A stretch of DNA of 62,725 nucleotides, filler included, from Chrysochromulina tobinii (taxonomy: Eukaryota): assembly GCA_001275005.1 (NCBI GenBank). It is 5 parts of 5 records of this genome, joined end to end, with 100 filler letters (N's around TTAATTAATTAA, not from the genome) between each part and the next. Parts side by side here need not be neighbours in the genome. Positions count along the whole stretch, not along the records: positions 1 to 16,216 come from JWZX01001313.1; 4 more parts are not named here. The stretch is one strand, 5' to 3'. Below are positions 1 to 62,725 of this stretch, piece after piece. The translations under genes and the position numbers were made by a program. Under the pieces are notes generated by a model, which had not been told where the DNA came from, searched no databases, and was given only the letters and a program-made list of their open reading frames with translations. Each line of letters starts with the position of its first letter. Position 1 is the first letter of the stretch.

Positions 1-175
1 GAGATACATGTATCTTGATGTATCTGATGTGTATCCCAAAATGTATCTTGGACTCGTTTGGGATACGTGTGAAATACATGCAAAATGTCAAGATACATGT
101 ATTCTCTTGGAATGTAACAGAGCATGTAACATACATTTGAGATACATCAGGATACATTCGGGATATTACATGTAT
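1..175. repeat. AT-rich degenerate repeat tract built on GATACAT/ATGTATC motifs
   Basis: Palindrome GATACATGTATC at 3-14 and many GATACAT/ATACAT and ATGTATC copies up to ~175; much lower GC than downstream. Confidence 0.5.
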
Positions 176-870
176 GGTGTTGCGGTTGGTCCATTCGATG
201 TGGAGATACGTCCCCTGATTTAGGTTGGTCTCTGCTGATTGCGGCTTGGACGATGGCTGGTGTTATTTCGGCTTTGATGGCTGGCCATGTGCTCATGAGG
301 GCGTCGGAGAAGGTTCGGGCGGCTGCTCCTTTAAGGTAGCGCGGGGCGTGGGTGTAGCTGTAGGTGTATTCGTTCATTTCGTCGTCGGTCGCTCATCGGC
401 TATGTACTCTCTGTGTCTTTTGCTTGCGGTTCGCCGCGGTCCCGTCCTGTGGCCGGTCTCGTCGTATGTGGCTACCCAGTACCCTGTTCCGCCGTCGCGC
501 TCCGGCCAGTCGCATGGGCCAGTACCGGCTACCGCGGCTACGCGACCTCTACGGGCCCGCTTGCCTCACTTTTAAAAGTCGGACTTTTCGGCGCCGTTGG
601 CGTTGCGCTCGCGCCGCTCGGGCTGGCGACTGCTCGGAACACCGTACTTCACCGTACAGCTGCACACCGTACACGCTTCGTATGCCTGGGTACCCCCCTC
701 GCCACGTGTTCGTGTACGCTGCCTGTTGGCATGTTTCTTACCTCCGGGACGCCCGCCCCGCCGCTCCCCCCCGCGCTGATGAGAAGGCGATGGCCGATGA
801 AAAGAGAGAAGACGCAGCGAAATGGAGGCGCGGTGCACCAAGGATGTGGTGAAGCGTATAGCACCACGCA

Positions 871-3353
871 TCATACATTGAGGGCATCTTTCTCACCGAG
901 ACCCGAAGCAGGTGCACGCAGGTCACATACTTCGATGGCCAGCTCCTCCTGCGCAGCCACCAAAAGATCGCGCTTGGTTCGCGCGTGGTGGTCTCGGTGG
1001 TACTCCGCATGGAGGTACGAGTACGCTTTGTGCCTGAAGGTCCGCTTGCGACCCACCGTGAAGCCGCGCGGAAAGAGGGCGTTCACGGTGTTGGAAAAAA
1101 AGAATTGCAGGAAGTCCGGCGCACGGTTCTTAATCTTGACCGCAGCAGAGAGCGCCAAGCGACCGCGCATGCCCACGTGGTTGAAACCAACCAGGAACAA
1201 GGTTCCGACTTTGCACTCGTCGCTCGCCAGCCGCAGCCGCACCGCGTCTGCAAGGGCGACGGCGCCGGCATCGCCAATGTCGTTGCTGCCCAGGTCGACC
1301 AACTGCAGCTCGCGCGCCTTGCCCATGGCGATGAAGGCCGCGAAGGATTGCAGGCCAGCGTCGCCTAAGTCGTTGCCGACGAAGAAAATCACCTTGAGGC
1401 CGGGCGCGACGCCACTGATCAGCGCGCTGCCGAGGGCCTCGACACCGCGTGGGCCCAGGCGGTTGAATCCAAGGAAGAGCTGCTCGAGCTGGGGCAGCGC
1501 GCCGGAGGAGAGGACGCCGCTGATGGAGGCGAGATGCTCGTCGGTGAGGCCGGTAAAGTTGAGATCGAGCCTCTTCAGGTTGACGCAAAAGTTGAGCGCC
1601 TGGCCGAGCCGTTCCGGCGAGCGCCACGGGTCCTTAGGGTCGAAGGGGATGCCGAAGAAAGAGAGCTCCTTGACGCAACCGAGGACGGCACGTGCCGTCT
1701 TCTCGTAGAGTGCGAGCACCTGCGCCCGGTCGGCGCCGTTGGTGAAACTGCGCTCCTTGAAGAGTTCCTCCATCCGCTCGGGCGTTGTCGGCAGCCTGCG
1801 AAGTGCTGCACGCTGCTTGCCGAGGTCGATGACGAGAGGCCAACCCGCCTGATGAGGGAGGCAATCAGGCTGATGAGGGAGGCAATCAGGGCTCATCAGG
1901 TTGATGACGAGGGGCCAACCCGCCTGCTGAAGGGTGAACGTCTTGCCGAGCTCCGCAGAGCACCGTTCGAACGTCGTCCAGCCGCGGCTTTCGTACGTGC
2001 GAATTGCATCGAACGATTTCGGCAGCTTCTTGGGCAGCTCGGTGAGCAGAACGACCGTCGTCTTGGAGTGCGCGTACCACAAGTCCATCGTGTGATCGAG
2101 TGCGAATTTCGTCGCCTGGGCCTGCGCCTCCGTTCGGCTGTCGCGGTAGCGCTCGGCCGCGCGCCGCTGGTCCTCGGTACGCTTCTCTTCGGCTATGAGC
2201 TCGGCCGGAGTCCACATCCTCGGATCCTTCTGAAAGAGGGAGGCCCAGTCGAAGAAGACGCCCATGTCGCAGAAGCCGTAGGCCTGGCACACGCCGAGCA
2301 GCCCAGAGCGGCGCAGCACGCCGAAGCTTGGGAAGAGGGTCTCCAGCCGTGTGCACAGCAGCCGCAGCTGCTCGCCATCGCAGTCTGGGTGCCTCGGTTC
2401 CAGCCAGCAACTGCGAGTGCACGCGGGGACATGCGGACCGTGTGAGAGGTGGGCGCCGGACACAATGAGGGGGATTGCAACTCAACGAGGGGGCGTTCGG
2501 CGCGACGTGACGCGTACTATGAGATGGCGACGATAGGGAGCAGGTCATCGACGTTGCGCTTGACAAACTTGCACGAGAAGATCTTGAAGAGCACGCGCAA
2601 CGCGCGCTTGAGCAGATTACCCTCACCAAGCTGCACCTCGAGCGTAAACGTCTCGTAAATCGAATAAAAGTCCACGCCGCGCTTCGCCTGCCGTGAGATC
2701 TTCTGCAGCTCGTCGACGCCGATGAAGGCGGCCTCAGGCAGCTCCTGCCGCCGCGGCAGGACGCCGCCGTATTCCCTGTGCACGCTGCTACCTGGCTGGC
2801 CGAGCGCGAGCAGCCACGACAGGCGCACCAGGCGCACCGGCCGCTCGCTCTCCTTGACGCCGTCGCCTTTGAGCGCTTCCCAGACCTCATCGTGGCCGAG
2901 GTAGCGCCGCGCAGCCGCCTGCGCCTCTTCGGAGGAGACGGCAGGGCTCGTACCTCTCGGGTGTGAGAGTGCCACCTCGCGAAGCGATTGGGATGGCTTG
3001 AGACGCTCCGAAGAGGGAATGCCACTGCAGGAGCACAGCCTGATGCCGACGGTCAGGCACAAGAGCGAGAGTGGCAGATAGATAAACTCCACACTCAAGA
3101 CGATTGCACTCACGATGCCCATGATCAGGGTCACGGGCAGGATGCACAAGTGGACCGCGAGGGGCATCGCGAGCAAGTCATGCAAGTAGAGGTGCGCCGC
3201 GAACACATGGACCGGAAAAAGAACGATGAGCAGAATGGGCGTGGCGATGGTCCCAATGAGCAGCATGGCCTGGATTACGTAACAGAGGGCGATTTGAATG
3301 GATGGCTTCCATGGCAGCGCGGTGCCCGACGGCAAAGTGCGGGCGGAGTTCAT
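871..3353 (-). CDS. Membrane-anchored HET-like domain + RI-type LRR protein (3 exons)
   Basis: ORFs 2517-3353 and 871-2463 join through GT-AG intron 2411-2517 (IVAISY|CWLEPRHPD). In-frame GC-AG intron 1849-1923. Hydrophobic N-terminal helices; HET-like motifs AISYCW, FFDWASLFQ, MDLWYAHS, YESRGWTTFER; C-terminal RI-type LRRs (LFLGFNRLGPRG, VDLGSNDIGDAG). Confidence 0.75.
1849..1923 (-). other. 75-nt GC-AG intron flanked by exon duplication
   Basis: Intron start copies the downstream exon (AGWPLVI encoded twice, 2 mismatches over ~28 nt); ends in two copies of CTGATTGCCTCCCTCATCAG. Confidence 0.7.
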
Positions 3354-3687
3354 CCACCAGGTGGATCCTGACCAACAAACATCGTTTTCCCACAGCCCGG
3401 AAGCGACCCATGGTACAATGTTCTCCCATGGTATATGTCCTGTGGGCGCTTCCGCGTCCGTGTGGTGGTTACAAATTGTGTGGACACTTGGGCCACGTGG
3501 CTAGAGGTCAGCACCCAGCCCCTGTACGCGATATCGCGATTCCTCTTCCGTGGTGTGGTTACAAATTTCGTTGGGACAGGTGGTTACAAGTGTCGTGAAA
3601 CGCAGCTGGTTACACTTCGTAGCGAGTACCTAGGAAGTTCCTAGTGCCAAGGAGCGCCGTATCGTGCACTTGGGACCACGATAGCAT

Positions 3688-3966
3688 GGGCTGTGTCGGC
3701 CACACCTCCGTCCATAGTGACCGTGGTCCTCGTGCTTGGGGGTCCGGAGTGTGTGCGCGCGTTGTGTTGAACAGCAGCAGCACCATCGGTACTATTGGGT
3801 TACGATAGGGGGGAGGGTCTCACCTTCCCCCGCCCGCCGCCGATTAACGGCCTGTGTAATAGCAGGCTGTGTCGGCCACGCCTCCGTCCATTGCGATAGC
3901 GGCCCCCGTGCTTGGGGGTCCGGACGGGAGAGCGCGCGCGTTGTGTGTGTTTCACAGCAGCAGCAC
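3688..3966. repeat. Two imperfect ~100-bp direct repeats
   Basis: GGCTGTGTCGGCCAC...GTGCTTGGGGGTCCGGA...ACAGCAGCAGCAC at ~3688-3783 and ~3866-3966. Confidence 0.7.
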
Positions 3967-4297
3967 AGAAATACGACACAGCATGGCCTGTACTGCCGTT
4001 CCGGTTGAAGACCCTGGGGATGCAGGAGACACGTTCACAGATATACTACGGTACGACCTATGCAGACACTCTGCGTCAAGCCCGACACGTCACGTTGCAC
4101 ATTGTCGTGCCCACGGTCCCAGACACCGCGCAGCGGCGTCGCGCGGTCGGGAGCCTTCTCGTTGTCCCCTGCGCACTGCACGCCCTTCTCAGTGTCCCCG
4201 CCCAACCTGCATTACGAGCACAAAGAGGGTGCTCGCCTCGGCGCCACACCCGCCGTCAACTCGCGCCGAGCAGCATGGTGCCCGGCCGGGCAGATCG

Positions 4298-4462
4298 ACT
4301 AGTACCATATAGCCCAAAAAGGGGGTGCCTGGCAGAACTAGCCCGAAAAGGAGGTGATCAAACTAGCCCAAAAAGGGGGTGATTGCACTAGCCCAAAAAG
4401 GTGGTGATCAAACTAGCCCAAAAAGGGGGTGATCGCACTATCCCAAAAAGGGGGTGATCGCC
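4298..4462. repeat. ~25-bp tandem repeat overlapping the PKS-NRPS stop codon
   Basis: About six copies of ACTAGCCCAAAAAGGGGGTGATC(GC/AA); the last encodes the C-terminal ITPFLG*. Confidence 0.85.
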
Positions 4463-7400
4463 TCGGCCACTCCCGCCGTCAACTCGCCGAACATCATCGT
4501 CCAGTGCGTGCCCGGCAGCTCGATCTTGTGCACCGTTGCCCGCGTCAGGTGCTGCAGCGAGCTCAGGAAGACGCATTCGCTCTGGTATGGGCGAGCGTCC
4601 ACGAGTGGGCAGCGCACGAGGGGGGTAGGCGTGGGCACGTGCGTGTCGAGCAGCCGATTGCATGCGACAAAGTGGCGCGCGGCGTTGGCACTGAGGCTCT
4701 CGAGCATCGCTTCGTCGTCGATCAGGGGAGCCAGCTGGGCGCGGAGCACCTGCCATTAGGTGCAATCAGGTTCAATCAGGTGCAATCAGGTGCAATCAGG
4801 TGCAATCGGGTGCAATCGGGTGCAATCATGTGCACTCGGATGCAACCATGTACATCAGGTGCAATAAGTTGCAATCAGGTTCAATCAGCATGGAGGGAAG
4901 CCAGCTGAGCACCTGCATGACCGCATCGCTGCGCGGGCTACCGTTGGCATCAAGACGCGGGCGGCCGTCCACATCGCTCGCTGTAGACGGATCGTGGAAC
5001 CCTCGGCCCTGCGTCTGCCCGAGTGGTGCATCGAACATGAGCACGGAGTGCACTGCTGGCAGAGGAGTGGGAAAGGTGTGTAGAGCTGGAGGCGCTGCGG
5101 AGGTGGGAGAGGGGTCGTCTTCACGCGCCATCTCGAGCGATCTCGCCTCGAGCTGACGCGCCATCTCGAGCGCCACTACACCACCGTACGACCAGCCGCC
5201 AAGCACGACGGCGGGCGACGCGCCCGCCATGGCGCCGCCCGCCACGGCGCCGCCCGCCACGCCGCCGCCCCCCAAGCCAAGTGCGTCGCTCATCAAGACG
5301 AGGCACTCCGCCGCAACCTCGGCGATCGACCCAAGCTGGAAGTCGCCGCCGTCGGTCAGGCAGCTGTCGTCGAAGGCGTACACGGGCCGTTGGTGGCCGA
5401 GGCGCCGGACCAGCGGCAGGTAGCACAGGCTACTTGCGCCTGCCGGATGGACCAAGAAGAGCGGCAGGTGCGTTGACGAATCCCCCGGCTGCAGGCACAC
5501 CATGCGCAGCTGGCGGGCGGGTGTGCCGGCGCTCGGGACGGCGCTCGACGCGCTGCCGCCGCCGTCCGCGGCGGTGGCGGCGGTGGCGGCGGTGGCGGCG
5601 GCGGCGGCGGCGCTGGCAGCGCTGGCATGCATTTGCGAGCAGATGCCGCGCACGGTGGGCTGTGCGAACAGTTGCTGGACCGTCAGCCGGGTGCCGAGCG
5701 CCGTCCTGAGCGCGAGCAGCAGCCGCAGGGCTGAGACGGAGTCGCCGCCTAGCCTGAAGAAGTGTGAACGTTCACAGCAGAGGGTCGCTACCGGTAGACG
5801 GAGGATGCTTGCCATCGCTTCACGCACCGCCGCCTCGACTGCGTCTGCTGGCTCCTCCACGGCGGGGGAGGTGCCCGACTCGGCGCCCTGCTGTGCGGAG
5901 CTTCGCCTGGTGGGCGGGGGGAGCCGTTTCCGATCCACCTTGCCGTTGGGGCTGAGCGGCACCTGCTCGAGCATCGTCCAGTGATGAGGGACCATGTAGT
6001 CGGGTAGCTTCTCGGCGCACAGGACACGGAGCCTGGCCTGCACGGCGTCGGCGTCGGCGGCGTCGGCTGTCCCGCCAACGGCTGTCCCGCCAACGGCTGT
6101 CCCGCCAACGGCTGACCCGCTAACGGCTGACCCGCTAACGGCTGACCCGCCAACGGCTGACCCGCTAACGGCTGACCCGCTAACGGCAGGCACCACGTAC
6201 GCGGCCAGCTTCCCTTCAAACACGGTAGCGGCCGCGCTCGCCACCGCAGCATCCTTGGTCAAGATCTCCTCAATCTCGCCGAGCTCGACGCGGAAGCCGT
6301 TCACCTTGACCTGCAATTTGAGGCAATCAGAGGTCATCAGAGGTCATCAGAGGCCATCCAATGCAATCAGAGGCCATCAGAGGCCATCGGAGGTCATCAG
6401 AGGCCATCAGAGGCCATCATCAGAGGCCATCCGATGCAATGAGAGGCCATCCGAGGCCATCGGAGGTCATCCGATGCAGTGAGAGGCAATGACCTGCGAG
6501 TCCTCCCGTCCCAAGATTTCTAGTAGCCCATCAGGGCGCAGACGACCAAGGTCGCCGGTTCGGAAGAGCATCGGTCCATTTGGGGTCGAAGGCGTCGTGT
6601 CGGGCGCGCCCGTGCGCAGGAATTGGCGCGCGCTCTTCTCGGGCTCCTGATGAGGGAGGCAATCAGAGGTCATCCGAGGCAATCAGAGGTCATCCGAGGC
6701 AATCAGAGGTCATCCGAGGCAATCAGAGGTCATCTGAGGCAATCGGAGGTCATCGGAGGTACCTCGTAGTAGCCCAACGCGACGCCTGCGCCGCCGATGT
6801 GGATCACGCCAGTAACCCATGGCTCGCAGTGATGGAGGTTGTCATCAAGGATGAGCATCGTCTGGTTGCGTAACGGCCGCCCGTACGGGATGGACGTCCA
6901 GTTGGGATCGGTGCTCAGCACGGCGCCCGGTGTGCCCTCGGGATGCAGCTCGTGCATATTCGACCAGATCGCGGCCTCGGTGGCGCCGCCCATGCTGATG
7001 ATGCGCAGCGCGGCACACTCGGACACGGCACGGATGCGCCCTGGGGAGAGCGCGCGCAATCCAACGAGCGATCAGAAGGCAATCGAGGTCAATCAAGAGA
7101 GATCAAGGGAGATCGCACCTGGGGAGAGCGCGCGAAACCAACGAGCGCTCAGAAGGCAATCAAGGGCAATCAAGGGCAATCAAGGGAGATCGAAGGAGAT
7201 CGATGGAGATCGCACCTGGGAGAGCGCGCGCAATCCAGTCTCCGCTCAAGAAGATGAGACGCAGGCAAGCGGGCAGCGTCCGGCCGGAATGCTCCGCATG
7301 CGCAACGAGCAACTCCATGAAGGCGGGCACGGTGTTCCAGATCGTGATCTGGTGCGAGCTCACGATCTCGAGCCAGATCTCGGGGTCGGGAGGGCTGATG

Positions 7401-10400
7401 AGGTCGTGAGGGGGCACGACCAACGAGGCGCCCGCGCCGAGCAGCCCGAAGACGTCATAGACGGATAGGTCGAAGCTGATGGACGAGAGCGCAAGCACGC
7501 GATCGGACGCACCGACGTCGAAGCGCTCGTTTAGGTCGAGGCACGTGTTCACGGCGCCCTGGTGGTGGCAACACACCCCTTTTGGAACGCCCGTCGAGCC
7601 CGAAGTATAGATGAGATATGCGAGCTCGCGGGGGCGCACGCGCCGTACTGGGCGCGGGTGAGCACGACGAGTGGCGTGCATGGCGTTCACGCCGACCGCC
7701 TCGTTCACACCGACCGCCTCGTTCACGTCAACGAGTGGCAATCCAACGGCTCGAAGCCATGCACACGCGCCGAGCGTGCTGGCGTCGCTCACGACGGCGC
7801 TCGCGTGGCTCAGCTCGAGGATCTGCTCGATGCGCTGCTGAGGCAGCTGGTCGGCGTTGATCGGCAGGTACGCGCAGCCCGCGCGCAGCACGCCCATCAC
7901 GGCGGCCACCTGCTCCCAGCCTTTGGTCGTCACGACGGCGACCACCGTGATCGAGCCGGGCGCTGTGCCGGGCGCTGTGTCGAGCGCCGAGCCAGGCGCC
8001 GAGCTGGGCGCCGCCGCCGTCTCGGGCGCCGTGCCGGCCTCTTCGGTGGCCGCCACTCCAACGTCCGCAAGCCGCGCCCAGACTGCCTCGGATGCGTGGT
8101 CGAGGGCGCGGTACGTGAGCGACGAGGACCGCCCACCCGAGGCATCGAGCCCGAGGACCGCCAACGCGTCGTGCCGAGCGCCCGTTGCATGCTCGGCGAA
8201 GAGCTCATGCAGCAGGCGTGTGTCGAGCTCGGAGGGAGGTGCGACCGGCAGCGCCGCCGTGGGCTCGGGGCGCAGCTCATAGACGAGTTTCGTCCACGCG
8301 CTCTCGTCGGTGCAGAGGGAGTGCAGCAGCCCCTCGTACATGGAGACCATCCCCGTCACCACCTCTGTGGGGAAGAGATCCTGCATGGACGCGAGCGAAG
8401 CCGGCGCCATCAGATGCCATTTGGTGCCATTGCCATCGGGTGCAATCAGGTGCCATCCGGTGCCATCCGGTGCCATCCGGTGCCATCAGGTGCCATCAGG
8501 TGCAATCAGGTGCAATCAGGTGCCACGCACCCGCATGATCTCGAGCAGCCACATGAGGCGCCCGTCGGGGTATTCCTTGACCGCATTCACCACGTACGAA
8601 CCGGGCGTCGCCTCTTGCACATGCACCTCGGTGAATTGAAGCTCGCGCCAATCGGACAATGCATGCTCGAGGCCCATCGCACTGACGAAGACGAAGGGTG
8701 CGACAGCGGCACCCGCTTGGTGGTGTACCTGCGTGGTCCGAGGCAATCCGTTGCCCTCAGAGGTCATCAGGTGCCATCAGGTGCCATCAGGCGTTCTCAG
8801 GAGCACACTCGGGCACACGGGCGCACTCATGTTGCAGTCCGGCGCAGTCAGGCGCCATCGGATGCAATCAGGTGCGATCCGGCGATGCCCACCTTGTTGT
8901 ACTGCTCCATGACCTCGACACCCGAGATCGACGCGTGCTCGAGATCTCGCATGAGCTCGTGCGTGAGTGCCTGGACGTGCTCCAGCACCGTCCTAGGTCG
9001 CTCAAGGTCAGCCTCGAGGAGGAAGGACGAGGAGAAGTTGCCGAGGATCTGGGAGGCGTCAGCATGCAATCACAGTGGTAATCAGTGGTAATCGGTGGTA
9101 CTCGGTGGTAATCAGTGGTAATCGAGGATCTGGGAGGCGTCAGCATGCACCGGGTGGCGATAGGGTGAGGAAGGCAATACGCGAGGCTATACGTGTGACG
9201 ATGAGCGGTACTCAGCAGTACTCGGTGGCAATCAGTGGTCATCAGTGGTCATCAGTGGCGCTCAGAGGAGGCGTGACCTTGGAAACGTCCTCGTGCACCG
9301 GGTGGCGCAGGCAGTGCAGGATGTTCAAAAGGAAGCGCGGGTGGCGAGCGAAGCGCGCCAGCACCAGGCAATAGATCGTCAGCATGACCGAGGTGGGCGT
9401 CACCCCGCGTGCGGCACAGCAAGCCTTGAGGCGCGAGAACATCTCGGCGCTCAGCACGGCGCCAATGTGACTAAACTCGCCCGTGGGGCGCCGTTGGCCC
9501 GGGGCCACAAGCATCGGCAGCTCCGGCGGCGGCGGCAGTTGCGGCACGCGATCCCACCAAAACGCCTTGGCAGCTTGGTACTCGGCGGAGGCCGCGAGCC
9601 CCGACGAGCCCTTGGCGCCGTCCTGAGCGCCGGTGAGGGAGAGGCAGTAGTCTTTGTACAGCAGCGAGCAAGCCGGCAGTTGGGCGTTCGGATCCTCGTA
9701 CAGGATCGAGAGCTGCCGGCGCATGGTCAGGTCGGACACCCCATCCATAATGAAGAGCGAGATGCAGAAGTGCATCGTCGACTGAGTGGGCGAGGTATGC
9801 GACACACGGCACTCGAAGAGTGGCCACGTCTCGGGGCGCGGACCTGTGGGGAGAGGGCGCGCCATGGTGAGCACTTGCATGCATGTGTGTATGGAAGAGT
9901 GGCCACGTCTCGGGGCGCGGACCGTCCCGAACCATCTGCGCCCTTGTGGCGAGCATCTGCTCGGGAGTCGCATGCCCATGCGGCGTCTCCACCGTGATCA
10001 CGTACTCGGGCACTCGCTCCAGCACGCGCATCATGCCGTCCGGCGTAACCACAGCGCGCCATGCCGGGTGGTGAGCACATAGCCGGTTCAGAGCCGCCTG
10101 CAGGCGTGCGATTAGAGGTCGTCAGAGGTCGTCAGAGGTCGTTAGAGGTCATTAGCGGTCATCAGAGGTCATTAGCGGTCATCAGAGGTCATCAGAGGTC
10201 ATTCATTAGCGGTCATCAGAGGTCATCAGAGGTCATCAAAGGTCATCAGAGGTCATCAGAGGTCACCTGCAGGCGCGAGATGTCGATCCGTCCCTTCCAT
10301 TGCCATTCAAAGTAGATCTGCGGGTTGAGCCCCTTCTCGGAGAATTCGGAGATGTGCAAGCCCACATAGTACGCCCGCGTGATGCCGATGAGTGGGAAGG

Positions 10401-13400
10401 GCTCGTGCGCCCTCTCGTGTGCATGCACCACCTGAAACAAGGGTGCCTCCTCCCCTGCCCTTCCTTGTATGGCAAGCCCGTGCTTCGCGTACGCGTCAGG
10501 CTGATCGAGCCGTTGGAGCGCCGTCTTGAGCGCCACCTGATCGTCCACGTGCCTGGCCAGCTGGCGTACGGTCGGCTTCTGGAAGACGGTGCGGATCGTG
10601 AGCTTGTACCCGCCGCGACGTCCTATCTCCTGTGAGGCAGAGAGGCCACGACAGAGGGGATCAGAGGGGCGATCAAAGAGGCCATCAGAGAGGCCATCAG
10701 AGAGGCCTTCAGAGAGGCCATCAGAGGCCATCAGAGGCCATCAGAGAGGCCATCAGAGGCCATCTGAGGCCATCTGAGAGGCCATCAGAGTCCATCAGAG
10801 GCCATCAGCTGAGAGGCCAACCGAGAGGGGATCAGGTCCTACCTGCACCAGCCGCAGGCAAAGCAACGAGTCGCCGCCTAATTGGAAAAAGTGAGCATCG
10901 AGGTCGATGGCTGTGGGGCCATCGAGCTTGAACACGGCCGCAAAGGCCGCTGCAAGCTGCAGCTCGGTCTCGGTGGTGGGCGGCGACACGACTGTATGGA
11001 CCGCCGCCGACGTAATTGACGTAATTGACGTAATTGACGTAATTGACGTAATTGACGTAACTGTATGGACCGCCGCCGACGCCACCGCCGCCGACGACGA
11101 CGACGACGCTGCCGCCGCCGGCGCCGCCAGGGGGCGCGCGGGCTGCTGCACGCTCGCACTTGGGGCCGATGGAGGGGGCGTCGTGCTGGGCACGGCGGCG
11201 GGTAGCCCGCGCTTGAGGGTGGCGGCGATGGTGGTTGCGAGATCGGTGACGCTCAAGACAGCGCTCGACGGCGTGCCCGGGCCCGCGGCAGTTGCGGCGG
11301 TCGTGCTCACCACGGCGCCTGCCATCCGCGGCGGCGGCAGGGTGTGCGCAATCTCGCCCACGGAGATGAGGGGCGAAGCAGCGAGATGCGTGAGCGTGAG
11401 CACGATCGCCTCGAGCATGCCCTCGAGAAAGGCGCCGTCGTGGGCGTCGCTCTCGGACGTGGCCACGACGCTCAGCAGGCTGTGGGGAGCGGCCGCCGAG
11501 CCGCGCTCCATTGCGAAGCGGACGGTGAGCGGCATGCCGATGCGATCGTAGATCGTAGGGGGGGCGGCGCTCACGCCGCCGTCGAGCTCGAGGCCCCATG
11601 CGGCCGATTGGTAGTCGACGATCACGAAGAAGAGGTCGCCATCTCGCACCTGTGGGGAAGGGAGGGCACCGCGCCGTGGTGAGCACTTGCATGCGAGCCG
11701 GGCCGGATTCAGATCGCGATCTCGGACCGAGCTCAGCTGCTTGATCTTCGTGAGCGGGTAGCTCTCATGTAGCTGACACAAACCGAGCTGCCGGTGAATC
11801 GCACGCGCCGTCGCGGCGGCGCCCGCCGCGCCCACGAGTGGCACACGAAGAGGCACCGTGTTCATCACAGGCCCAATGACCTGATGAAGAATTCAATCAA
11901 TAGGTCATTAGATGCCAATCAGAGGTCATCAGAGGCCAATCAGAGGTCATCAGAGGCCCAATGACCTGCGCGAGCTGCGGCACGGGCGCCGTGCGTCCCG
12001 ACAGGGCACACCCAAAGACGACCTCGTCGGCATCGGCCCCCTCGTACACCCACTGGACGATGGCCCACGCGGTGTGGCAGAGCGCAGCGATCGTCACCCG
12101 CTCCTGCACAGCAAGCGTCCTCAGCCGCTGCAGCACGGCGCTGTCGAGGACACACCGACGGCGCGTGGCGACGCCGGTCGCGGTTTCAGAGCAGCACATC
12201 TTTAAGGCGCCCAAGCCCGCCGGGATCGGGCGCGCCGTGCTGGGCAGGCTGTGCACCGCCTGCTGCCAGAACGCCTCGGAAGCGGAGCCCGGCTCGGCGC
12301 TTAGGGCGGCTTCATGACGCAGCTTTACCTCGTACGAGGGCGGCGGCGGCAGCGGCACGCCCGGCGTGTTGTACCCATGCGCGACGGCGTCGACGAGGAG
12401 GCGGAGGGACCATCCATCTTCGATGATGTGGTGGATGGACAGCAGCATCAAGTGCTCCTCTGCGCCAAACTGAAGCACGCGGACGCGAAGCAGCGGCGCG
12501 CACTCGAGATTTGAAAGCTCCGCGCGCTCCGTGGCCATCACCTGCTGCGCGAGCCCCTCGCGCGCGCGCACGCTCGTGCAATCGGGATGCACGCTCACGC
12601 CGAAAGGCAACTCGGCAGTCGGTTCGACGACCTGCTGCGGCTGCGGGAGCGCCTGGAGGTCGAAGCGCGTGCGCAGCATCGGCGTGGTGGCGACCAGCTG
12701 ACGCCACGCCGCGTGCAGTCGCGCCGTGTCGAGCGCCCCGTGGAGCTGCCACATGATGGAGAGGACAAAGGGGTGCTGCTCGGGGGAGCGGGCGGGGGAG
12801 GACAGTCAGCATGCAAATGGGGAGGGCAATCAACGGGTGCTGCTCGGGGGAGCGTGGGAGAACAGTCAGCATGCAAATTGGGAGGGCAATCAGCATGCAT
12901 GCACGCGCACCTGCTCGGGGGAGCGCAGGTGCTCGAAGATCATCGCGCGCTGGAGGGCGGAGGTCTCCATCACGAGCCCATCTCGGCGCGCGGAGGTCTC
13001 CATCACGAGCCCATCTCGGCGCGCGACACTTCGTTGATTGCCCTCCCCATTTGCATGCTGACTACCCTCCATTGCGATCCAACCTCGGTGCGCAGGGGGC
13101 GGCAAATCGCTCTCGACGACGGTGAGCCATCCATTCACATTCACAGAGTCGGACGAGCTCAGCGAGTGTGAATCGGCCGATCCGGCAAAGTCGACGGTCT
13201 CGGTCTCGTCAACCACGTCATCCTCGGATCCTAATTTGGACGAGATCTCGATCTCCGACTTTGTCTCCGGTTCGAGCGCCGTCCCGAGCGCCTCGAGGTG
13301 TGACATTGCCTCCTCGACCAGCCGTTGTACGCTCAGGTTCAGAAGCTCGTCCGGCTGGAGGTACATCTGCACGCGCGCCCGGCGCGGCGCGTCGTGGGGA

Positions 13401-16216
13401 AAGAGCCCGTCCAGGATCTGGTCACGGAGCTCGACGGACGAAAGGGAGTCGAGACCCCTCTCCACCAGAGGTGCCCATTGCAGCGCCTCCATCGCCGCCT
13501 CTGACGTGCCCTCGGCCAGCGGCAGCACCGTATTCACAGCCTGCTTCACGAGGCTCAGCACCGACGCACGGCTATGGCGCTCAACACGGCGCTCGGCGCT
13601 GCCGCGGCCACTTCCGTTGGCTTCGAGCACGCCCTCGGAATGGTGATCAACACGGCGCCCAATCTCCGGCGCCGAGCTCGCGAGCGCAGCGCCCGCGCCC
13701 GCGGCAGCGCTCGCGCTCTCGGCAGCGCTCGCTCGCGTCGTCGTCGGGCGCCAGCGCCACGGGTAGACTTGCGTGCGGTAGGCGGCAGCGCCGAGATGGG
13801 CACCGAGCATCGCTCGGAGGGGTGCGCACTCTGCAGGCGCGGCGGGGCGTCCGCGGCGACCTGATGGACAACGTGGGCGGCATGGGCGGCGCCGCTTGCA
13901 GCAGTGCGTGCGCGTTGCTGCCCCCAAACCCAAACGAGCTCACGCCCGCGACGGCGCTCGGTTCGGCGGCGGAGTCTGGGGGGGAGGCGCGCCGGAGGGG
14001 GGTGCCCGCGACGGCGCTCGGTTCGGCGGCGGACTCCTGGGGGGAGGCGCGCCGGAGGGGGGTGCTCTGTACCGGTAAGGCGAGCCCGTACGCCCGTAAA
14101 AAGGGGGCCACCTGGGGGTTGAGGGCGCTCAGGTGGCCATTGGTGAACGTGCTCGCCAGCCGGAGCGCAAGCGCCGTCTTGAGCATGCCCGCCATCCCGG
14201 CGGCGCCCTCGAGGTGGCCCACACAGGCCTTGATGGCGCCGATCATCACGGGCCGTTGGCGGTGTGGGGAGCGCTCGACGAGTGCGGCATGCAACGCAGC
14301 TGCTTCGATTGGGTCGCCGAGTGCGGTGCCCGTACCTGCGGGGATAATGCGCTGTGGTGAGCGCTTGCATGCAAGGCAGGTCATCAGTGGCAATCAGCGT
14401 ACCTCCTCACTTGCATGCAAAGCAGGTCATCAGGTGGCAATCAGCGTACCTCCTCACATACATGCAAGGCAGGTCATCAGGTGGCCATCAGCGTACCTCC
14501 TCACATACATGCAAGGCAGGTCATCAGGTGGCCATCAGCGTACCTCCTCACATACATGCAAGGCAGGTCATCAGGTGGCCATCAGCGTACCGTGTGCTTC
14601 GAGCAGCGTGACCTCGGCCGCCGTAACGCCGCCGTCAGCCAACGCTTGAGCGAGCAACGCCTGCTGTGCCCGCGCACTCGGCGCCGTGAGCCGCGCGGTG
14701 CGTCCGTCGCTGTTGACGGCCGTGCCGCGGATGAGGCACAGGGGCGGCAGCAGCCTTCTGCGCGAGCTCATCGGGCGTCGAGCTCCACCCTCGGGAGATG
14801 TGAGCTCCGCCTCGGGAAATGTGAGCTCCGCTTCCGGAGATGTGAGCTCCGCCTCGGGTGATTGGAGCTCGACAAGCAGCGCGCCGCCGCCCTCGGAGCG
14901 CACGTAACCGTCGGCGCGAAGGGCAAAGGCCTTGCATCGCCCCTCCACCGAGAGCATGCCCGCATGCTTGCGCACCTGATGAGGGAGGCAATCATCGGGT
15001 CATCAGTGGTCACCAGTGGTCATCGGTCGTCATCAGTCGTCATCAGTCGTCATCAGTCGTCATCAGTCGTCATCAGCATGCTTGCGCACCGCGAGGGCGC
15101 GAGGCGAGAGTAGCAAGTCGAACGCGCCCACGACGACGCGGTCCACGCCGCGGCTCGGCTCTCGCAGCAGACGCGCCGCCAGGTGCAACGCGGTGCCTGC
15201 CGACGAGCACGCGGTGTCGACGACGAGGCTCGCGCCGCCCAGCCCGAGCACATACGAGAGACGGTTCGCAGCGATTGAAGGGGCGACGGAGGTGCCCAAG
15301 AAGGCGCCGCCCCGGGCGCCGTGTGCACTCGAGGCGAGCTCGAACTGCCAGTCGTGATTTGAGAGCCCGACGCACACGGCCGTGCGGGTTTGGCTCGCCA
15401 TGTGCGACGGGGAGCGCAGCAGCTCGCCCAGTGTCTTCGGACGACTTTTGGCGGGGGCGGACGAGTCGCCCAAGACGGCGCCCACGAGAATCTCCGTGCC
15501 GAGCTCGAGAAGGAGCCGTTGATGAGGATCCATTGAGATTGCCTCCGCCTCCGCGATCCCAAAAAAGGAAGCTCCAAACCGCTCGGCGCCCTGCGGCGCG
15601 CTCAAGAAGCCGCCGAACGCCTCGCCGCCGCCGCAGGCATCGCCGCTCCAGCCCGGCGGGCCGGTGTGAATGGCATCGCCGTGTGAACGTAGCAGGCTTG
15701 TGAGAGCGTCGGAGCGGTTGCAGCCGCCCGGTAGGCGGCTGGACGTGAGCACGAGCGCGATGGGTGCCTCGACGAGCGGGCGAGCGAGCGAGGCGCGAGA
15801 CGCGCCGGCAGCGGAGCCCGCGTCAGCGGCAGCAGCAGCAGCAGCAGCAAGGGAGGGAGCGGGAGGGAGGCCGTCGCCACCGCCGCCGCTTTGGCTGGCG
15901 GCACGAGCGTCAAGGTAGGCCAGTACGGCGCGCGGCGTCGGGTGGTCGAATAGCAGCGTGCTCGGCAGCGGCGCCAGCTGCGGCGCCACCTCGCGCTCGA
16001 GTAGCGTGAGCAGCTCCGAGAGCGCGAACGAGTCAAACTCCATGTCCATCAGGGAGCTGTCGAGGCAGCTGGCGAGATCGATCGAGATTGAGAGGCTCGC
16101 ACCCACGCGCTGAAGCGCCGCCCCGAGCGCGCCGTCGAACTTAGGCGCCGATGCCGCCGGTGTCGCGGACGCCGCCGGCTTCACAGACAACGCCGTCGGC
16201 GCCGCCGCCGCCGCTG
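4438..16216 (-). CDS. Hybrid PKS-NRPS megasynthase, 5'-truncated at contig end: ACP-KS-ACP-C-PCP-Cy-A-PCP-TE
   Basis: ACP EFDSFALSEL; KS MDPHQRLLLE, DTACSS, EAHGTGTALGDPIE, GHLEGAAG, VSSFGFGGSNAH; ACP GLDSLS; C HHIIEDGWS; PCP FFQLGGDSL; Cy-like EPFPLIGITRAYYVG, WPLFECRV, GVTPTSVML, LGNFSS; A YTSGSTGVPKG, GGATE, FRTGDLGR, QVKVNGFRVELGEIE, NGKVDR; PCP FFRLGGDSV; TE HPAGA, GWSYGG, PGTHW. Fourteen GT-AG introns checked by hand join successive ORFs in phase; one junction (~13730-13900) is unresolved. Confidence 0.93.
4750..4912 (-). other. GT-AG intron with (TGATTGCACC)n repeats and 10-nt junction duplication
   Basis: GCAG|GTGCTC at both ends; phase 0 join of TE exons. Confidence 0.85.
6070..6190 (-). 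repeat. In-frame 15-bp coding tandem repeat (GSAVS/GTAVG)
   Basis: About eight copies of AACGGCTG(A/T)CCCGC(C/T) inside the A-domain C-terminal subdomain. Confidence 0.85.
6311..6493 (-). other. GT-AG intron with (TGATGRCCTC)n repeats
   Basis: GCAG|GTCA at both ends; restores GREDSQ|VKVNG. Confidence 0.9.
6647..6762 (-). other. GT-AG intron, 10/20-nt repeats, ends CTGATTGCCTCCCTCATCAG
   Basis: Restores ALGYYE|EPEKS in phase 0. Confidence 0.9.
7041..7215 (-). other. GT-AG intron whose 3' end copies the upstream exon end, with internal tandem duplication
   Basis: TGGATTGCGCGCGCTCTCC(C)CAG at exon end and intron end, plus a diverged internal copy; phase 1 join. Confidence 0.85.
8381..8530 (-). 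other. GT-AG intron with (TGATKGCACC)n repeats
   Basis: Phase 0 join EIMR|DLFP. Confidence 0.85.
8729..8892 (-). other. GT-AG intron with 10-nt repeats
   Basis: Phase 0 join YNK|VHHQ. Confidence 0.85.
9049..9277 (-). other. GT-AG intron with (TGATKACCAC)n repeats and duplicated acceptor
   Basis: Restores EDVSK|ILGNFSS; TGCATGCTGACGCCTCCCAG-ATCCTCG present twice. Confidence 0.88.
9844..9922 (-). other. 79-nt GT-AG intron whose first 29 nt exactly duplicate the downstream exon
   Basis: GTCCGCGCCCCGAGACGTGGCCACTCTTC after both donor and acceptor; phase 1 join. Confidence 0.9.
10098..10266 (-). other. GT-AG intron with (TGATGACCTC)n repeats, 10-nt junction duplication
   Basis: CGCCTGCAG|G at both ends; phase 0. 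Confidence 0.88.
10630..10842 (-). other. GT-AG intron with TGATGGCCTC(TC) repeats
   Basis: Splits the PCP: LRLVQ|EIGRRG. Confidence 0.88.
11650..11727 (-). other. In-frame 78-nt GT-AG intron with diverged exon duplication
   Basis: GTCCGAGATCGCGATCT vs exon GTGCGAGATGGCGACCT; shares GCATGCAAGTGCTCACCA...CCCCACAG cassette with 9844-9922. Confidence 0.75.
11881..11965 (-). other. 85-nt GT-AG intron with 15-nt junction duplication
   Basis: CAG|GTCATTGGGCCT at both ends; phase 0. Confidence 0.9.
12776..12910 (-). other. GT-AG intron with two copies of the upstream exon end
   Basis: CGCTCCCCCGAGCAG at exon end, mid-intron and intron end; two TGATTGCCCTCCC..TTTGCATGCTGACT cassettes. Confidence 0.88.
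12982..13083 (-). other. Probable in-frame intron carrying the shared cassette in antisense orientation
   Basis: CGAG|GTTGG...CGAG|AT; 33-nt tandem duplication gives an alternative acceptor at 13015. Confidence 0.5.
14336..14590 (-). other. GT-AG intron made of ~47-nt tandem repeats
   Basis: Restores EAHG|TGT (phase 1); GGTACG at both ends; ends in GCATGCAAGCGCTCACCACAGCGC...CCCCGCAG. Confidence 0.9.
14976..15089 (-). other. GT-AG intron with 15-nt junction duplication and (TGATGACGAC)n
   Basis: G|GTGCGCAAGCATGC at both ends; ends TGATTGCCTCCCTCATCAG. Confidence 0.9.
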
Positions 16217-51263: not shown

Positions 51264-52981
51264 ATGATACTTGCGGTTTCGCTACTCATCGGCCTCCCGC
51301 TTGAGGCGATTGGCAATAGTGAAGTGAGCAGGCAGCCCAGCCGCGCACAGGTGCTCGTCATCGTCTCTGACTCGGGAAGCGGCACAACAGACTTCGGCGA
51401 AGCGCTCAATAAACACCCATGCATGTTCAACTTGGGAGAGCCCTTCATGCAAAGCGCAATGATGTGGTCTAAGAGCGAGATCGCCGGATGCGTGTATCCT
51501 GACGCACTCTTCGATGCGGACTCTGGCCTTCTCAAGCACAACAACAACACGCAGCTGACTCGCAAGATCGGTGAGCTCAGATCCAGCAAAGCTCGGCAAG
51601 CTTGGCAAGAGACAGGCAAGCGACCGGACGAGAATCTCGCCGGTGACTCTCCCTTGCTGTACGAGGGCCTGGACTACAACCTCGCGGACTACTTCGTCCG
51701 CATCCGCGATCACATCTGCGCGAGTGTCCCCGATGAGATCTGCCCACTCTCAGATTGCACAATCTCCCTGAAGATGTTCCCGCAGTTCGTGAACGCCCAC
51801 ACGGGCCCAACACCGCCCACACCAGGCAGGTGCACGGACGCGCGTAACGAGAAGGCGATGACGGCGTGGAAGCAGGCGCTCGAATCCATGAAGAGCAACC
51901 CGAAGGTCGCGACGTTTGCGCTCCTCCGGAACGAGCTCGATAGGCAGTTTTCCGTCTTCCGCAGATTCAGTCTCCCTGGTACTCAGTTTGACTGCAGCAC
52001 GCCGCGCGCGCCCAGCGCGTTCGCCAACGTGTCGACCAACTACACCGACACCCAGATGCAGATCGAGAGCTGTTGGAAAGATGCGGCGGGTGCCGACGAG
52101 TGCGTTGGCCACGCTCTTGGGCTCGTAGGCCTGTCATCCATGCCGGTTCTAGGGGACGCGGGGAAGGCCGTCAACATCATGCAGGCGGGCGAGGTCTCGT
52201 TCTTGTACCACGCGGCGCAGGCGAGTTTCTCCACGGAGCACGGACCCCTGATTGCCACGATCAATTGCCACCATCAACTAACCATCAACTGCTCACCAAT
52301 TGCCACACCAATCGCCACTATAATTGCGCGCAGGCGAGTTGCGCCACGGACCCCGACGCCATCTTCAAGCGGGTGGGGCAGGACAAGTGCGTTGGACAAG
52401 TCGATGCGTTGGACAAGTGCGTCATAATAGAGGGCCGCTCTCAACCTCTGCACTCCCAACCCCTAGCCAACGCGGCGTTCGCGGCACCAAAGGGCGTCTC
52501 GGACCTAATCTCGGACCTACCGGACGTATCGAGCGATGCGGTGGTGAAGAGCGACGGCGCGTTGGTGTTCGCCAACTACGTCACCAACCTTGTGCGCCCT
52601 CAGCAGGGCCACCCTAGTACGCCGGGCGAGAGCTATCCTCGTTCATGGCCCGATAGCTTCCCGGCCCCTCATCCGAGCCGAGCCCTGCAGCCCGAGGACC
52701 AAACTACGCAGAAGCACGCCGTAGGTGCCGCCGACTGCCGGTGCCTCGCCCCTAGCGAGTGCGACCAGCTTCTGGACCTGGTGCTGCCCGGCACCCCGAT
52801 GGTTCAGCAGGCCAAGTGTGGCTGCTCGCCCAACTGCATGCTGGTGCACTGGCAGCCAGTGCACAAGATCACGGAGCCTGTCGACATGGGCCATGACGCC
52901 CTCCCTCCCCTAACACCTTCTCCCGCCCCCGAACCAGATGGCGTTGCGCATGCTCTCAGTCTGATGCCATCGATGTTGTAG
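51264..52981 (+). CDS. Secreted sulfotransferase-like protein (2 exons)
   Basis: Signal peptide; SDSGSGTTDFGEALNKHP..LGEPF resembles a PAPS-binding loop; GC-AG intron 52221-52333 joins ORFs 51264 and 52073 in phase 0. Confidence 0.55.
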
Positions 52982-59371: not shown

Positions 59372-59373
59372 AT

Positions 59374-62300
59374 GCGCTCGGCAAACCTATCGTCGGCAAG
59401 CTCAAGGAGAAACTCGCCAAGTGCCGCACGGAGAAAGGCAAGACGGTCTCTTCGGTCGAAGTCTGCAACGAGTGCGACGAACCAATCGAGCTCGAGTGCT
59501 CGGTGCTCGAGGCGCACGACCTCAACATCATGATCGACCTCAGCTCCAAGCCGCCGAGCACACCGACGACAATCGACGATATGCCCACGGCAATCCTGAC
59601 ACGCTTCGTCGGCCTCGCCGAGAGCACGAACCCGTTTGTGCTGACCGCTGTGTCGCACGGCTTCATGAGCGCCGTCAACGAATACGTCGAGAGCATCTAC
59701 GAGGCCGAGGAGCGCATGCACGCGATCGAAATCGCTGACTGCAAGTTGCGAGCAGACACGCAGCGCAAGGCGCTTGCCGCGTCCCCATCGCTGCGCGCCG
59801 TATGCGCCACGCAAATTCAGGAGGCATTCAAGCGCTTCCTCGACCGACGGCGCCACAACATCAGCGGCATCGAGCTCGAGATCAACTCGGCGATGCATGA
59901 GAACACTGGTGAGTCGACGGTGCGAGTGCAGATCGACGGCGGCGCCAACACGAACCTCTTCGTCTCCCAAGCTATCAGAGCGCGGGCGACAAAGACGGGC
60001 AGCACGACGCCGCTTGGACTCGCTGGCAAAGGCCAACACCTGCCGACGCAGGGCGATGCCAAGCTCACCATCGAGCTCATCGACGAGCTCTCAGAGGTGT
60101 TCGCGACGGGCACAATCAACGGCGTACTTGCACCAACGGGCCGGCGCGACCTCCTCGGCGTAACACCAGTATGGGATGTCGTGCAGCTCACCTTCCTGCC
60201 TGAGCCGTGGCTGCTCGCAGTCCATCCGGCAAGCGGCCGAGCGGGGACCATGACCCGCTGGAACGGGCTCTTCATCATGGACGCGACCATGACGACCACG
60301 GGCATCTCGTTCAAGCTGGACAAGACGCTCAAGCCGCACGACCTGTCGGCACTCATCTCATGCAAGGCTCACGAGGCCTCGGTCGTGGATGTGTCATCGC
60401 ACCACAAGTACGTGCTCCTGGCAGCGCAAATGCATGTCGACGCGTCTGGGCTCCGGCGCCTCGCCGGCACCGCCCCGACCTTCGACTTCAAGACGGTACC
60501 GACGACAGCGGCGCGCCTCATCGACACGGACATGATCAGAATTGCGGCCAACCTGCGCAAAGCACCTGCGGTGCAACGGGCGCCCGCTCTCCATCGGCCG
60601 ACCGAAGTCGGTCACACGTTCCAAGTCGACGGATTCGGGCACGTCGGCGTCAAGGCAGCCGGCTGCTCGGACACGTACCAGTGGCTGATCATCGACGCGG
60701 TCTCCGACTACATGTACGATCACCTGACGTGCACGTCGAACCAGGCCACGCTCTTCGAGTTCCTCGACACCTGGCACGCGAACGAGACGGCCCTCGGCCA
60801 CAGCCCCAAGGTCCTCATCTTTGACGCGTGCCCAACGTGGGCATTCGACTCCGCCTTCACCCCGCTGATCGCAGCTCGCTACAAGTGCAAGGCGATCGTC
60901 GCAGCGGGGGGCGACCACAACCGCATCCCGAAGATGGAGGCTGCGCAGGACCCACTAACGCGCATGGCAGAAGCGATGCTCAAGCGTCGTGTGTGGGGCA
61001 AAGGCTTCTTTTTGCATGCGCGCTCATACGCCGTGCAGATCAGGAACCACAAGGTGGCTCACCATCAGACGCACACGAGAGTCCATCGGCACACGGGCAA
61101 GCCTGCTGATGTCACATTCATCCTCTTCGGCACGACGTGCGCGATCCTCAAGGACGGGCTGAACTCACAGCGCACAGAGGTCGGCACGGAGCGCACGGAC
61201 AACGCCGACATCATCGGGTACGAGCCTAACGCCCGCAAGTACAAGCTGTGGAAGAGCGACACGCAGCGCATCATCCACCGCACGAACCCGCGCCCGCTTA
61301 ACGAGATGCAGCTCGCGCTGACGGGCATCCCGGCCAGTGGCACCGTGGTCGAGGCGGAAGTGCAGACGGACGACGATGCGACCTACGCGCCGCTCGTGCT
61401 CGCTGCCCCGCCGAAGCCACCGCCCGCACCGATCGTCATCCAGGCGGGCTACGAGCCGCTGCCTGATGGCACGCGACTTGAGATGTGCTTCGACACGGAT
61501 AAGCAGAAGCCCACATGGTTCCCGGCCACGGTCACCAAGTCCCACAAGCAAGAGTCGGGCAAGGTGTTCACCGAGCTGAGCTGGGACGACAAGAGCTGGG
61601 CCGACGATCCGAAGTGGAAGGGCAAACTCTTTGACCTCACATCGCAGCACCAGCCGTGGCGGCTGCTCAACGCGCCCTCGCCTGCCGCTACCGCACCCGT
61701 GCCCGCCGCGCCTATCGCCCCAGTGATCGCGCCGCAGCAGGGGGCGCCACGTCGAGTCCTGCGATCGACTAGGCTGGCAATGCCGGTCTCGGCTGCGCTC
61801 GAGCGCGTCCTCCCCGGGCTCTCGGAGACCGCGGCCATCGACACCTTCAACGCAATCGCACACCAATGGCTCGGCCACGTCGTGCCGATCGAGGTGCAGT
61901 CGATTGAGGAGCTCGACAAGGCACGCGAGCACATCCACCAGCTGGAATGCGCCCTCGACAAGATCGACCCGTTCCAGGCCGAGGTGAGCGCCACCGAGCT
62001 GGCCGATGGCCTCGAAGTCTCCAAGGCGCTCAAAAACATCGTCGACGTCAAGTCGGCGAGCGGTGAGTGGTACACCATCACCATCCCCAAGAACGAGCGC
62101 GCGCTCAAGGCCGACCCGAACGAGGCCGCATGGCGCCTCTCGCATCAAGCAGCTCACGAATCCGTCCTCTCGAACCCGCTGAACACGATGGAGAAGCGCA
62201 AGGTAGCCAAGGCACTCGGCGCGATCATCTCCCCGGTCGTGATGCAGGACTCCGTGAAGAAGGATCTCGTGACGCACGAACTGCTCAAGTTCAAATCCAG

Positions 62301-62725
62301 GCTCTGCTCCGCCGGTGACCAGGTCAAGCGCATCCAGATCGCGAGGGGCGTTGAGGACTATGCGGCCACGCACGCGACGATCTCGGACAACCTGCAATTC
62401 AAGCTCATGCTCTCGACGGCAACCCTCGGCGATGTTCAAGACGAGCAGGGACGCCGCGTCCTCCCTTGGCGAGATGGCCAAGACGAGCAAGCGCAAGCGG
62501 CCACACTGCGGGAGCTGATGGCCAAGGACCCAAAGCTCCGCCGCGTCCCGAACGACGTCACGTCCACGGACTTCAAGAACGCGTATCCGAAGGCCGCACG
62601 CCTCCGTGATGTTGGCTTCATGGAAACCTACGAACCAATGTACGACGATGAGGGCGACCAGCTCTGCTACAAGCTCGGCGCCCCGATCTGGGGAGAAGCT
62701 GCTGCGGGCAACGAGTGGGAGCAGG
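59374..62725 (+). mobile_element. Ty1/copia LTR-retrotransposon pol polyprotein (protease-integrase-RT), open at both ends
   Basis: Hand translation from 59374: protease VQIDGGANTNLF (~59926) and RRDLLG; integrase HTFQVDGFG..WLIIDAVSDY, KVLIFDACP, HNRIPKME; RT KFKSRLCSAGDQ, STDFKNAY, CYKLGAPIWGEAAAGNEW. INT-before-RT order defines copia. No LTR visible. Confidence 0.88.

Follow-up and report, generated by a model that had tools for sequence, protein, structure and literature searches.

Spliced introns in Chrysochromulina tobinii genes combine a copy of neighbouring exon with a piece of common intron sequence

The closest described relatives of the introns reported here are the introners of marine Chrysochromulina sp. 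metagenome-assembled genomes (MAGs) (Gozashti et al. 2022, PMC9860276), which share with them a haptophyte host, a concentration in genes, the lack of terminal inverted repeats and a splice site supplied by the target duplication. The example set out in that paper has a fixed 4-bp duplication and carries its donor, whereas the duplications here run from 6 to 61 nt, either splice site can be co-opted and copies are not alike over their whole length (a comparison by description only). In its supplement, ‘tobin’ occurs once, in the genome list, and the 32 of 214 Chrysochromulina mentions examined concern marine MAGs; a second paper (PMC12130899), which leaves about 72% of introner families without an assigned mechanism, names no haptophyte in its main text. 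Introner-like elements of Symbiodinium and Polarella (bioRxiv 10.1101/2020.10.14.339549) also draw the donor from the start of the duplication, carry the acceptor, favour phase 0 and recruit splice sites in several modes; each class there has a characteristic duplication of 3–8 nt, and those of Symbiodinium have inverted repeats, unlike the introns here. Gains at staggered double-strand breaks in Daphnia pulex (PMC4202315) left similar direct-repeat footprints, repeated same-site events and later internal duplications in young introns. Models of intron transposition, reverse-transcriptase template switching and tandem genomic duplication (PMC3443670) likewise let an existing intron give the splice signals, or a duplicated AG|GT give both sites; the 14 intron transposition cases counted there come with no in vivo proof, and the available sections of that paper describe no truncated intron to which an exon duplication of variable length is joined. 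Finally, Replitron-1 of Chlamydomonas (PMC10288648) has, like the introns here, one precise end, one fuzzy end and a variable target duplication; it differs in being a kilobase element with an HUH transposase and terminal direct repeats, no long copy having been seen in our family, and the RG target included in its duplication would fit only our type B introns (defined below), in which the copied segment ends in AG.

Here we report that genes on one C. tobinii contig carry spliced introns made of a 6–60-base copy of the neighbouring exon and a piece of common intron sequence. The family acts like an introner, yet its duplications vary in length, terminal inverted repeats are lacking and its members are not alike from end to end, in contrast to DNA-transposon introners. 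The available portions of the introner and intron-gain literature (including PMC4580454 and PMC11282704) hold no description of it; introner sequence datasets could list either of its two modules, termed M1 and M2 below.

The window, that is, the whole stretch of 62,725 nt analysed, joins five contigs, and the finding lies in two minus-strand genes of contig 1 (positions 1–16216), a PKS–NRPS hybrid and a leucine-rich-repeat (LRR) gene (Table 1). With 13 introns taken out, the PKS–NRPS frame yields 2,520 amino acids from 13939, and with the two further introns out it is stop-free for 732 amino acids from 16214; the frameshift between the KS and C regions, at 13844, where a DNA-run contig is one base shorter than the window, is probably an assembly error. 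Retention of any of 14 of the 15 introns brings an early stop, the exception being intron G, which is stop-free and in frame and is nevertheless spliced; 12 of the 15 are in phase 0. Long ORFs, including P0009, are colinear across introns H–P, in line with this gene model; ORFs of this type were left out of the empty-site counts below because they are possibly transcripts. The adenylation exon has its nearest named homolog in Prymnesium polylepis (76%), with bacterial pyochelin/yersiniabactin-type synthetases coming next, and the hybrid as a whole has pyochelin/yersiniabactin-like modules with many bacterial homologs. At its stop codon lies a tandem array (4240–4500) with a diverged repeat of 30 nt from the last exon on both sides.

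Table 1. Features of contig 1 (RNA joints refer to four RNA runs).
Feature	Position	Strand	Description
LRR gene	874..2481	-	open frame, multi-copy family; host of intron L1; paralog L099 91% alike
PKS–NRPS hybrid gene	4441..16214	-	KS, condensation, adenylation, carrier and thioesterase domains (Pfam); 15 introns; 5' end beyond contig
Intron L1 (predicted)	1849..1923	-	GC donor; 29-nt exon copy, 2 mismatches; two acceptor modules
Intron Q (predicted)	4750..4912	-	10-nt repeat over both junctions; frame broken if retained
Intron P (predicted)	6311..6493	-	8-nt repeat; homologs colinear over site; splicing inferred from RNA record lengths only
Intron O (predicted)	6647..6762	-	same acceptor module; 3-nt repeat only; common to sister lineage
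Intron N, type B	7041..7215	-	copy of exon-1 end, about 22–23 nt (one extra base), gives acceptor; sister lineage without intron
Intron M	8381..8530	-	short diverged repeat; 150-nt RNA joint, 4/4 runs
Intron L	8729..8892	-	4-nt repeat only; 164-nt RNA joint, 4/4 runs
Intron K	9049..9277	-	exon-1 end copied in diverged form; filler-bearing nested duplication of 26 nt (read by eye); 229-nt RNA joint, 3/4 runs
Intron J, type A	9844..9922	-	30-nt exact exon copy; acceptor part of second family (M2); also in sister lineage; 79-nt RNA joint, 3/4 runs (30 letters fit either side)
Intron I, type B	10098..10266	-	10-nt repeat; 169-nt RNA joint, 4/4 runs
Intron H	10630..10842	-	4-nt repeat; 213-nt RNA joint, 3/4 runs
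Intron G, type A	11650..11727	-	18-nt diverged copy (3 mismatches); M2 family; 78-nt RNA joint, 2/4 runs
Intron F	11881..11965	-	15-nt exact repeat extending into filler-like microhomology; 85-nt RNA joint, 1/4 runs
Intron E, type B	12776..12910	-	15-nt exact copy of exon-1 end; nested duplication; 135-nt RNA joint, 1/4 runs
Inverted copy of intron E filler	13033..13071	+	37/39 alike; within exon, in frame, unspliced
Intron B (predicted)	14336..14590	-	tandem full M2 core copies with own donor; 6-nt repeat; common to sister lineage
Intron A, type A	14976..15089	-	15-nt exact exon copy, filler and acceptor module M1; sister lineage without intron; 114-nt RNA joint, 2/4 runs

The original prediction listed 11 introns on this contig as bracketed by exon duplications of variable length. 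All 11 were recovered in place on the minus strand, ten with GT..AG borders and one (intron L1) with GC..AG, and their repeat lengths bore remeasurement, those of introns N and G in a gapped comparison. The list itself was incomplete: five further family introns (M, L, K, H and O), in which the exact junction-anchored repeat is just 2–4 nt, bring the number to 16. As a set, the repeats exceed chance, with a summed junction score of 171 over the 16 introns against a maximum of 88 when introns were swapped among junctions 20,000 times, and a score of at least 8 in 9 of 16 introns against at most 4 in the swaps. The 6- and 8-nt cases, taken singly, are not significant because such lengths recur in swapped pairs (at least 6 nt in 46 of 240, at least 8 nt in 5 of 240). 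Seven ordinary introns on contigs 2 and 3, predicted by eye, have repeats of at most 4 nt. Contig 3 also holds a single family-like intron (52221–52333, plus strand), read by eye, with a GC donor and a diverged repeat over both junctions. At 59372–62725 of the window, a long frame resembles, by eye, an LTR-retrotransposon polyprotein, with no family filler found nearby.

Splicing was examined in RNA, as the prediction had proposed. RNA contigs show exact splicing of 11 of the 16 introns, including seven of the 11 first listed, so that the coding sequence is preserved; L1, Q, P, O and B remain predicted. Of 20 listed sequencing runs, 16 contained the stretch, six of them as RNA. Eleven introns were predicted over 8300–15300, and four RNA runs gave base-exact joints for ten of them (M, L, K, J, I, H, G, F, E and A), while the joint of intron B was absent among the 15 RNA joints shown, one more being hidden. 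A single RNA record (record 19) skips the 175 nt of intron N; its match ends at 6762, at the edge of intron O, and the record continues beyond.

The sequence enclosed by the duplications had been described as repeat filler; it is no arbitrary repair filler but belongs to dispersed intron families. A scan with the exact 20-nt acceptor module M1 returned at least 136 stretches from at least 129 metagenome loci (797 kb), with 243 raw sites among the loci listed, 174 of them unique with sufficient flank and 123 terminal. At 63 of these 123 sites among the loci listed, the start of the next exon is copied upstream (score of at least 10), against 5 of 1,211 in the null. The 63 copies measure 11–61 nt, 29 are free of mismatches, 46 begin with GT, 10 with GC and 7 otherwise, and at 14 sites two or three copies are stacked; the share of duplicated sites is similar in a one-organism subset (25 of 53) and in the remaining loci (38 of 70). 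Among the same loci, the copied segment starts with the base that directly follows the acceptor module at 60 of 123 sites and off register at 3 (null 28 of 1,217); the copy is preceded by G in 45 of 55 cases and by AG in 25 of 55. The second module, M2, has an anchored duplication at 26 of 41 sites against 5 of 820 in the null, with copies of 10–40 nt. Neither module therefore shows the fixed short duplication of miniature transposon (MITE) introners, and the two have only CAG in common. Over the 20 nt upstream of M1, mean identity is 35%, reaching 90% or more in 39 of 1,035 pairs; one end is target-derived, and whole-length likeness is lacking. Family arrays are clumped, with 16 on contig 1 and 0 on the other 46 kb. 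Motif scans gave no sign of the family in viral contigs (0 and 1 match in two scans) or in prokaryotes (15 matches; by chance, an 18-mer would occur about 17 times in 596 Gb).

One junction of these units is fixed at a splice site and the other is free, in two mirror forms. In type A, the start of exon 2 is copied at the donor and the acceptor is carried by the insert; in type B, the donor is carried and the end of exon 1 is copied at the acceptor. Both geometries occur in one family because the same 54-nt M2 core is found with either type of copy: the full core with its donor, as in intron B, has 14 matches elsewhere (85–98% alike), several of them with a copy of the end of exon 1 behind (as at L057, L127 and L038), and a 5'-truncated core occurs with copies of the exon-2 start. 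The proposal that the duplicated exon provides a splice site is supported. Flanking repeats that lie off register also occur more often than in the null (64 of 350 arrays against 41 of 1,031), and the type B count of 31 of 350 against 20 of 1,031 includes stacked-module matches. The original view that these introns lack terminal inverted repeats is mostly right: the longest inverted match averages 5.6 nt (maximum 10) against 4.1 (maximum 12) after shuffling, although filler and acceptor module are complementary over a short stretch. Together with the variable duplication length, this upholds the poor fit to a DNA transposon. A conserved RNA structure was considered and rejected, as six of seven introns fold no better than shuffles; an Rfam match to sR3 was likewise dismissed as chance (22 bits against a cut-off of 41).

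Duplication and insert lengths are anticorrelated (M1, rho −0.48, n = 61; M2, rho −0.70, n = 24 of 26) and add up to about 80 nt, more tightly than independent pairing would give; for M2, the total has a median of 79 and a standard deviation of 7.4, against 14.2 under permutation and 12.6 once a floor at 63 is set. Microhomology between the free joint and family filler is weak (mean 1.1 versus 0.4 nt, n = 41 of 61, P = 0.004). An 8-mer of the intron's own flank recurs in 9 of 61 fillers (null mean 3.2, maximum 7), and introns of the same locus share a filler subtype (6.4 versus 2.4; 25 pairs, 1/10,000 permutations) with no distance trend. To judge from these sequences, the donors of family sequence look local. 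The filler of intron E has as its sole other match the inverted copy 120 nt away, which RNA contigs pass through without differences; this copy is unspliced and in frame, and therefore copying is not confined to spliceable products. In-frame exonic duplications with a similar footprint lie at 10996–11083, 6070–6185, 14790–14870 and 12963–13028, where they are translated and not spliced, one being a 21-nt repeat around a 9-nt tandem filler.

Empty sites, which the original prediction had named as a check, were found for two introns. A sister lineage has predicted proteins 89–92% identical to those of the window, and these have read-through intron sequence at their start or end and therefore derive from unspliced DNA. 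At site A, all 16 listed sister-lineage ORFs (15 of a 29-member cluster and one other) read through, yet end in intron B; at site N, the nine covering ORFs of ten read through, yet end in intron O. At these orthologous sites the predicted proteins point to a recent presence/absence difference between the lineages, by gain here or loss there, and both introns have long duplications. Introns J, K, B, M and O are common to the two lineages, and B, M and O have short duplications. In the sister lineage, an additional M1 insert, accompanied by a short duplication, is present at intron J in seven of nine listed ORFs of a 68-member cluster (absent in one, one uninformative); as this polymorphic insert carries its duplication, insert and duplication can arrive in one step. 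Paralogous domains without the intron, at sites A, H, L025 and L103, are all distant (33–55% identity). More distant homologs P0147–P0149 (62–63%) depart from the frame some three codons ahead of site K, which suggests that they carry a different intron close to it. At locus L019 (about 4600–4655), an M1 intron lies in the EAHGTGT motif of a paralogous KS domain, displaced by two codons from the position of intron B in the same motif, likely a parallel gain. Intron L1 is also present in the LRR paralog L099, with identical copies; after it, L099 has a 57-nt in-frame insertion from local sequence with a 5-nt duplication, which the window paralog lacks.

We favour, with a probability of roughly one half, the interpretation that template-switch copying from existing, mostly nearby introns makes new introns. 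At a G|GT-like site in an exon, the DNA being synthesised would switch template to an existing, usually nearby intron and copy that intron as far as one of its splice-site ends; it would then rejoin the gene some tens of bases further back, with duplication of the exon as the result. Microhomology would assist at both joints, and selection would presumably retain products only if they have a usable GT/GC or AG and measure about 60 nt or more. Every new intron could become the parent of further copies; therefore, no encoded enzyme or conserved terminus would be required. As template, we lean towards the excised intron RNA rather than the neighbouring DNA, because the unrelated modules have only splice-site ends in common. 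A more tentative version, which we hold to be possible but less likely than not, would make excised spliceosomal introns the mobile template, their RNA being copied into breaks of the same or a neighbouring transcribed gene with one end precise and the other truncated. Several observations weigh against template switching: there is no duplication of at least 10 nt at 60 of the 123 M1 sites among the loci listed, nor in five window introns, and the tight total length is not explained by the model, and introns of 114–255 nt are tolerated. The enrichment of off-register flanking repeats counts against it too. Moreover, the stacked, nested and in-frame exonic duplications speak for a general local duplication process, which could add copies later, and the likeness of filler between neighbours could stem from later gene conversion. 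Parent–daughter pairs would be candidates only, with no intermediate among the loci examined. The original interpretation, staggered-break repair or target-primed insertion, stands in its spliced introns and variable duplications; it would have to accommodate in addition two mirror geometries, an end anchored at a splice site and local donors.

A mobile element that is non-autonomous and makes variable target duplications, either by SINE-like target-primed retrotransposition or as a Replitron-like HUH element, with selection retaining spliceable copies, would account for the near-identical dispersed core (about 54 nt, 85–98% alike, 14 matches) and for one fixed and one ragged end, as well as for the variable duplication, a feature also of SINEs and other non-LTR elements. 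Precedents exist in the variable duplications of Replitron-1 at RG targets (PMC10288648) and in known non-LTR introners (PMC12130899). We nevertheless regard this origin as unlikely. Either end may be the fixed one and the same core is anchored both ways, unlike the fixed polarity of a SINE; M1 and M2 are alike in CAG only; and donors tend to be local. Sites are also tied to coding sequence, 85 of 110 classified sites preceding sense coding DNA and 5 non-coding DNA, against 314 and 198 of 824 random ones (13 of the 123 sites were too short to class, and 6 of 13 training ORFs were out of frame and dropped). No reverse transcriptase or transposase family was found in the 67 of 210 long ORFs scanned, and Rfam gave no match at the gathering level over 1–16216. 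We attach a similarly low likelihood to the idea that the repeats are later scars on older introns gained with little or no duplication, added by repair on the spliced transcript that passes the junction and is then aborted, a partial intron loss, or by local duplication over a junction with later deletion of the older part. Repair of breaks can use spliced RNA as template (PMC12065846), and such a history would account for the exact anchoring, both mirror forms, the confinement to genes and the roughly constant length; stacked units on older introns (L077, L087 and L061) and nested junction duplications in K, E and the sister lineage's B are in keeping with it. However, long duplications are already present in both lineage-specific introns and short ones in three of the five common introns, the full core copies at B and L088 precede exons that start with the core's own first five bases, and the polymorphic J insert supplies a module absent from J.

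Simpler routes fare far worse. Ordinary end joining at a staggered break, with filler of any origin, and simple tandem duplication of an exon segment that contains AGGT are both published routes of intron gain (PMC4202315, PMC3443670), and the insertion in L099 was patched locally; we consider them very improbable. Break-repair gains of the Daphnia type are not known to carry inserts related to other introns. Here the junction direct repeats are of that kind, but the insert is a recognisable intron-family sequence terminating exactly at the splice site, with a 20-nt module identical in at least 129 loci. Nor are the introns complete exon copies, as tandem genomic duplication would have it: each of 61 units includes 20–163 nt of family insert. 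That the repeats are an assembly artefact or due to chance is scarcely credible. The assembly is short-read and repeat-rich and differs from a DNA run by one base at 13844, but contigs of a DNA run (possibly the window's own sample) cover introns J, F and L without differences, exactly one copy is removed in RNA, and diverged versions occur in the paralog and in the sister lineage.

The origin of new spliceosomal introns is an open question, and the present family gives a readable footprint at about half its sites. Screens that demand end-to-end similarity would tend to miss it. For the haptophyte host, the annotation of PKS–NRPS genes is affected, in that in-frame introns such as G and L1 may be read as protein. 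Polymorphism between close strains, together with mixed-culture sequencing and matching RNA, makes parent–daughter tracing and de novo detection feasible. If excised introns are indeed the template, this would be intron transposition without a transposon, active in wild populations, in which each daughter is a parent.
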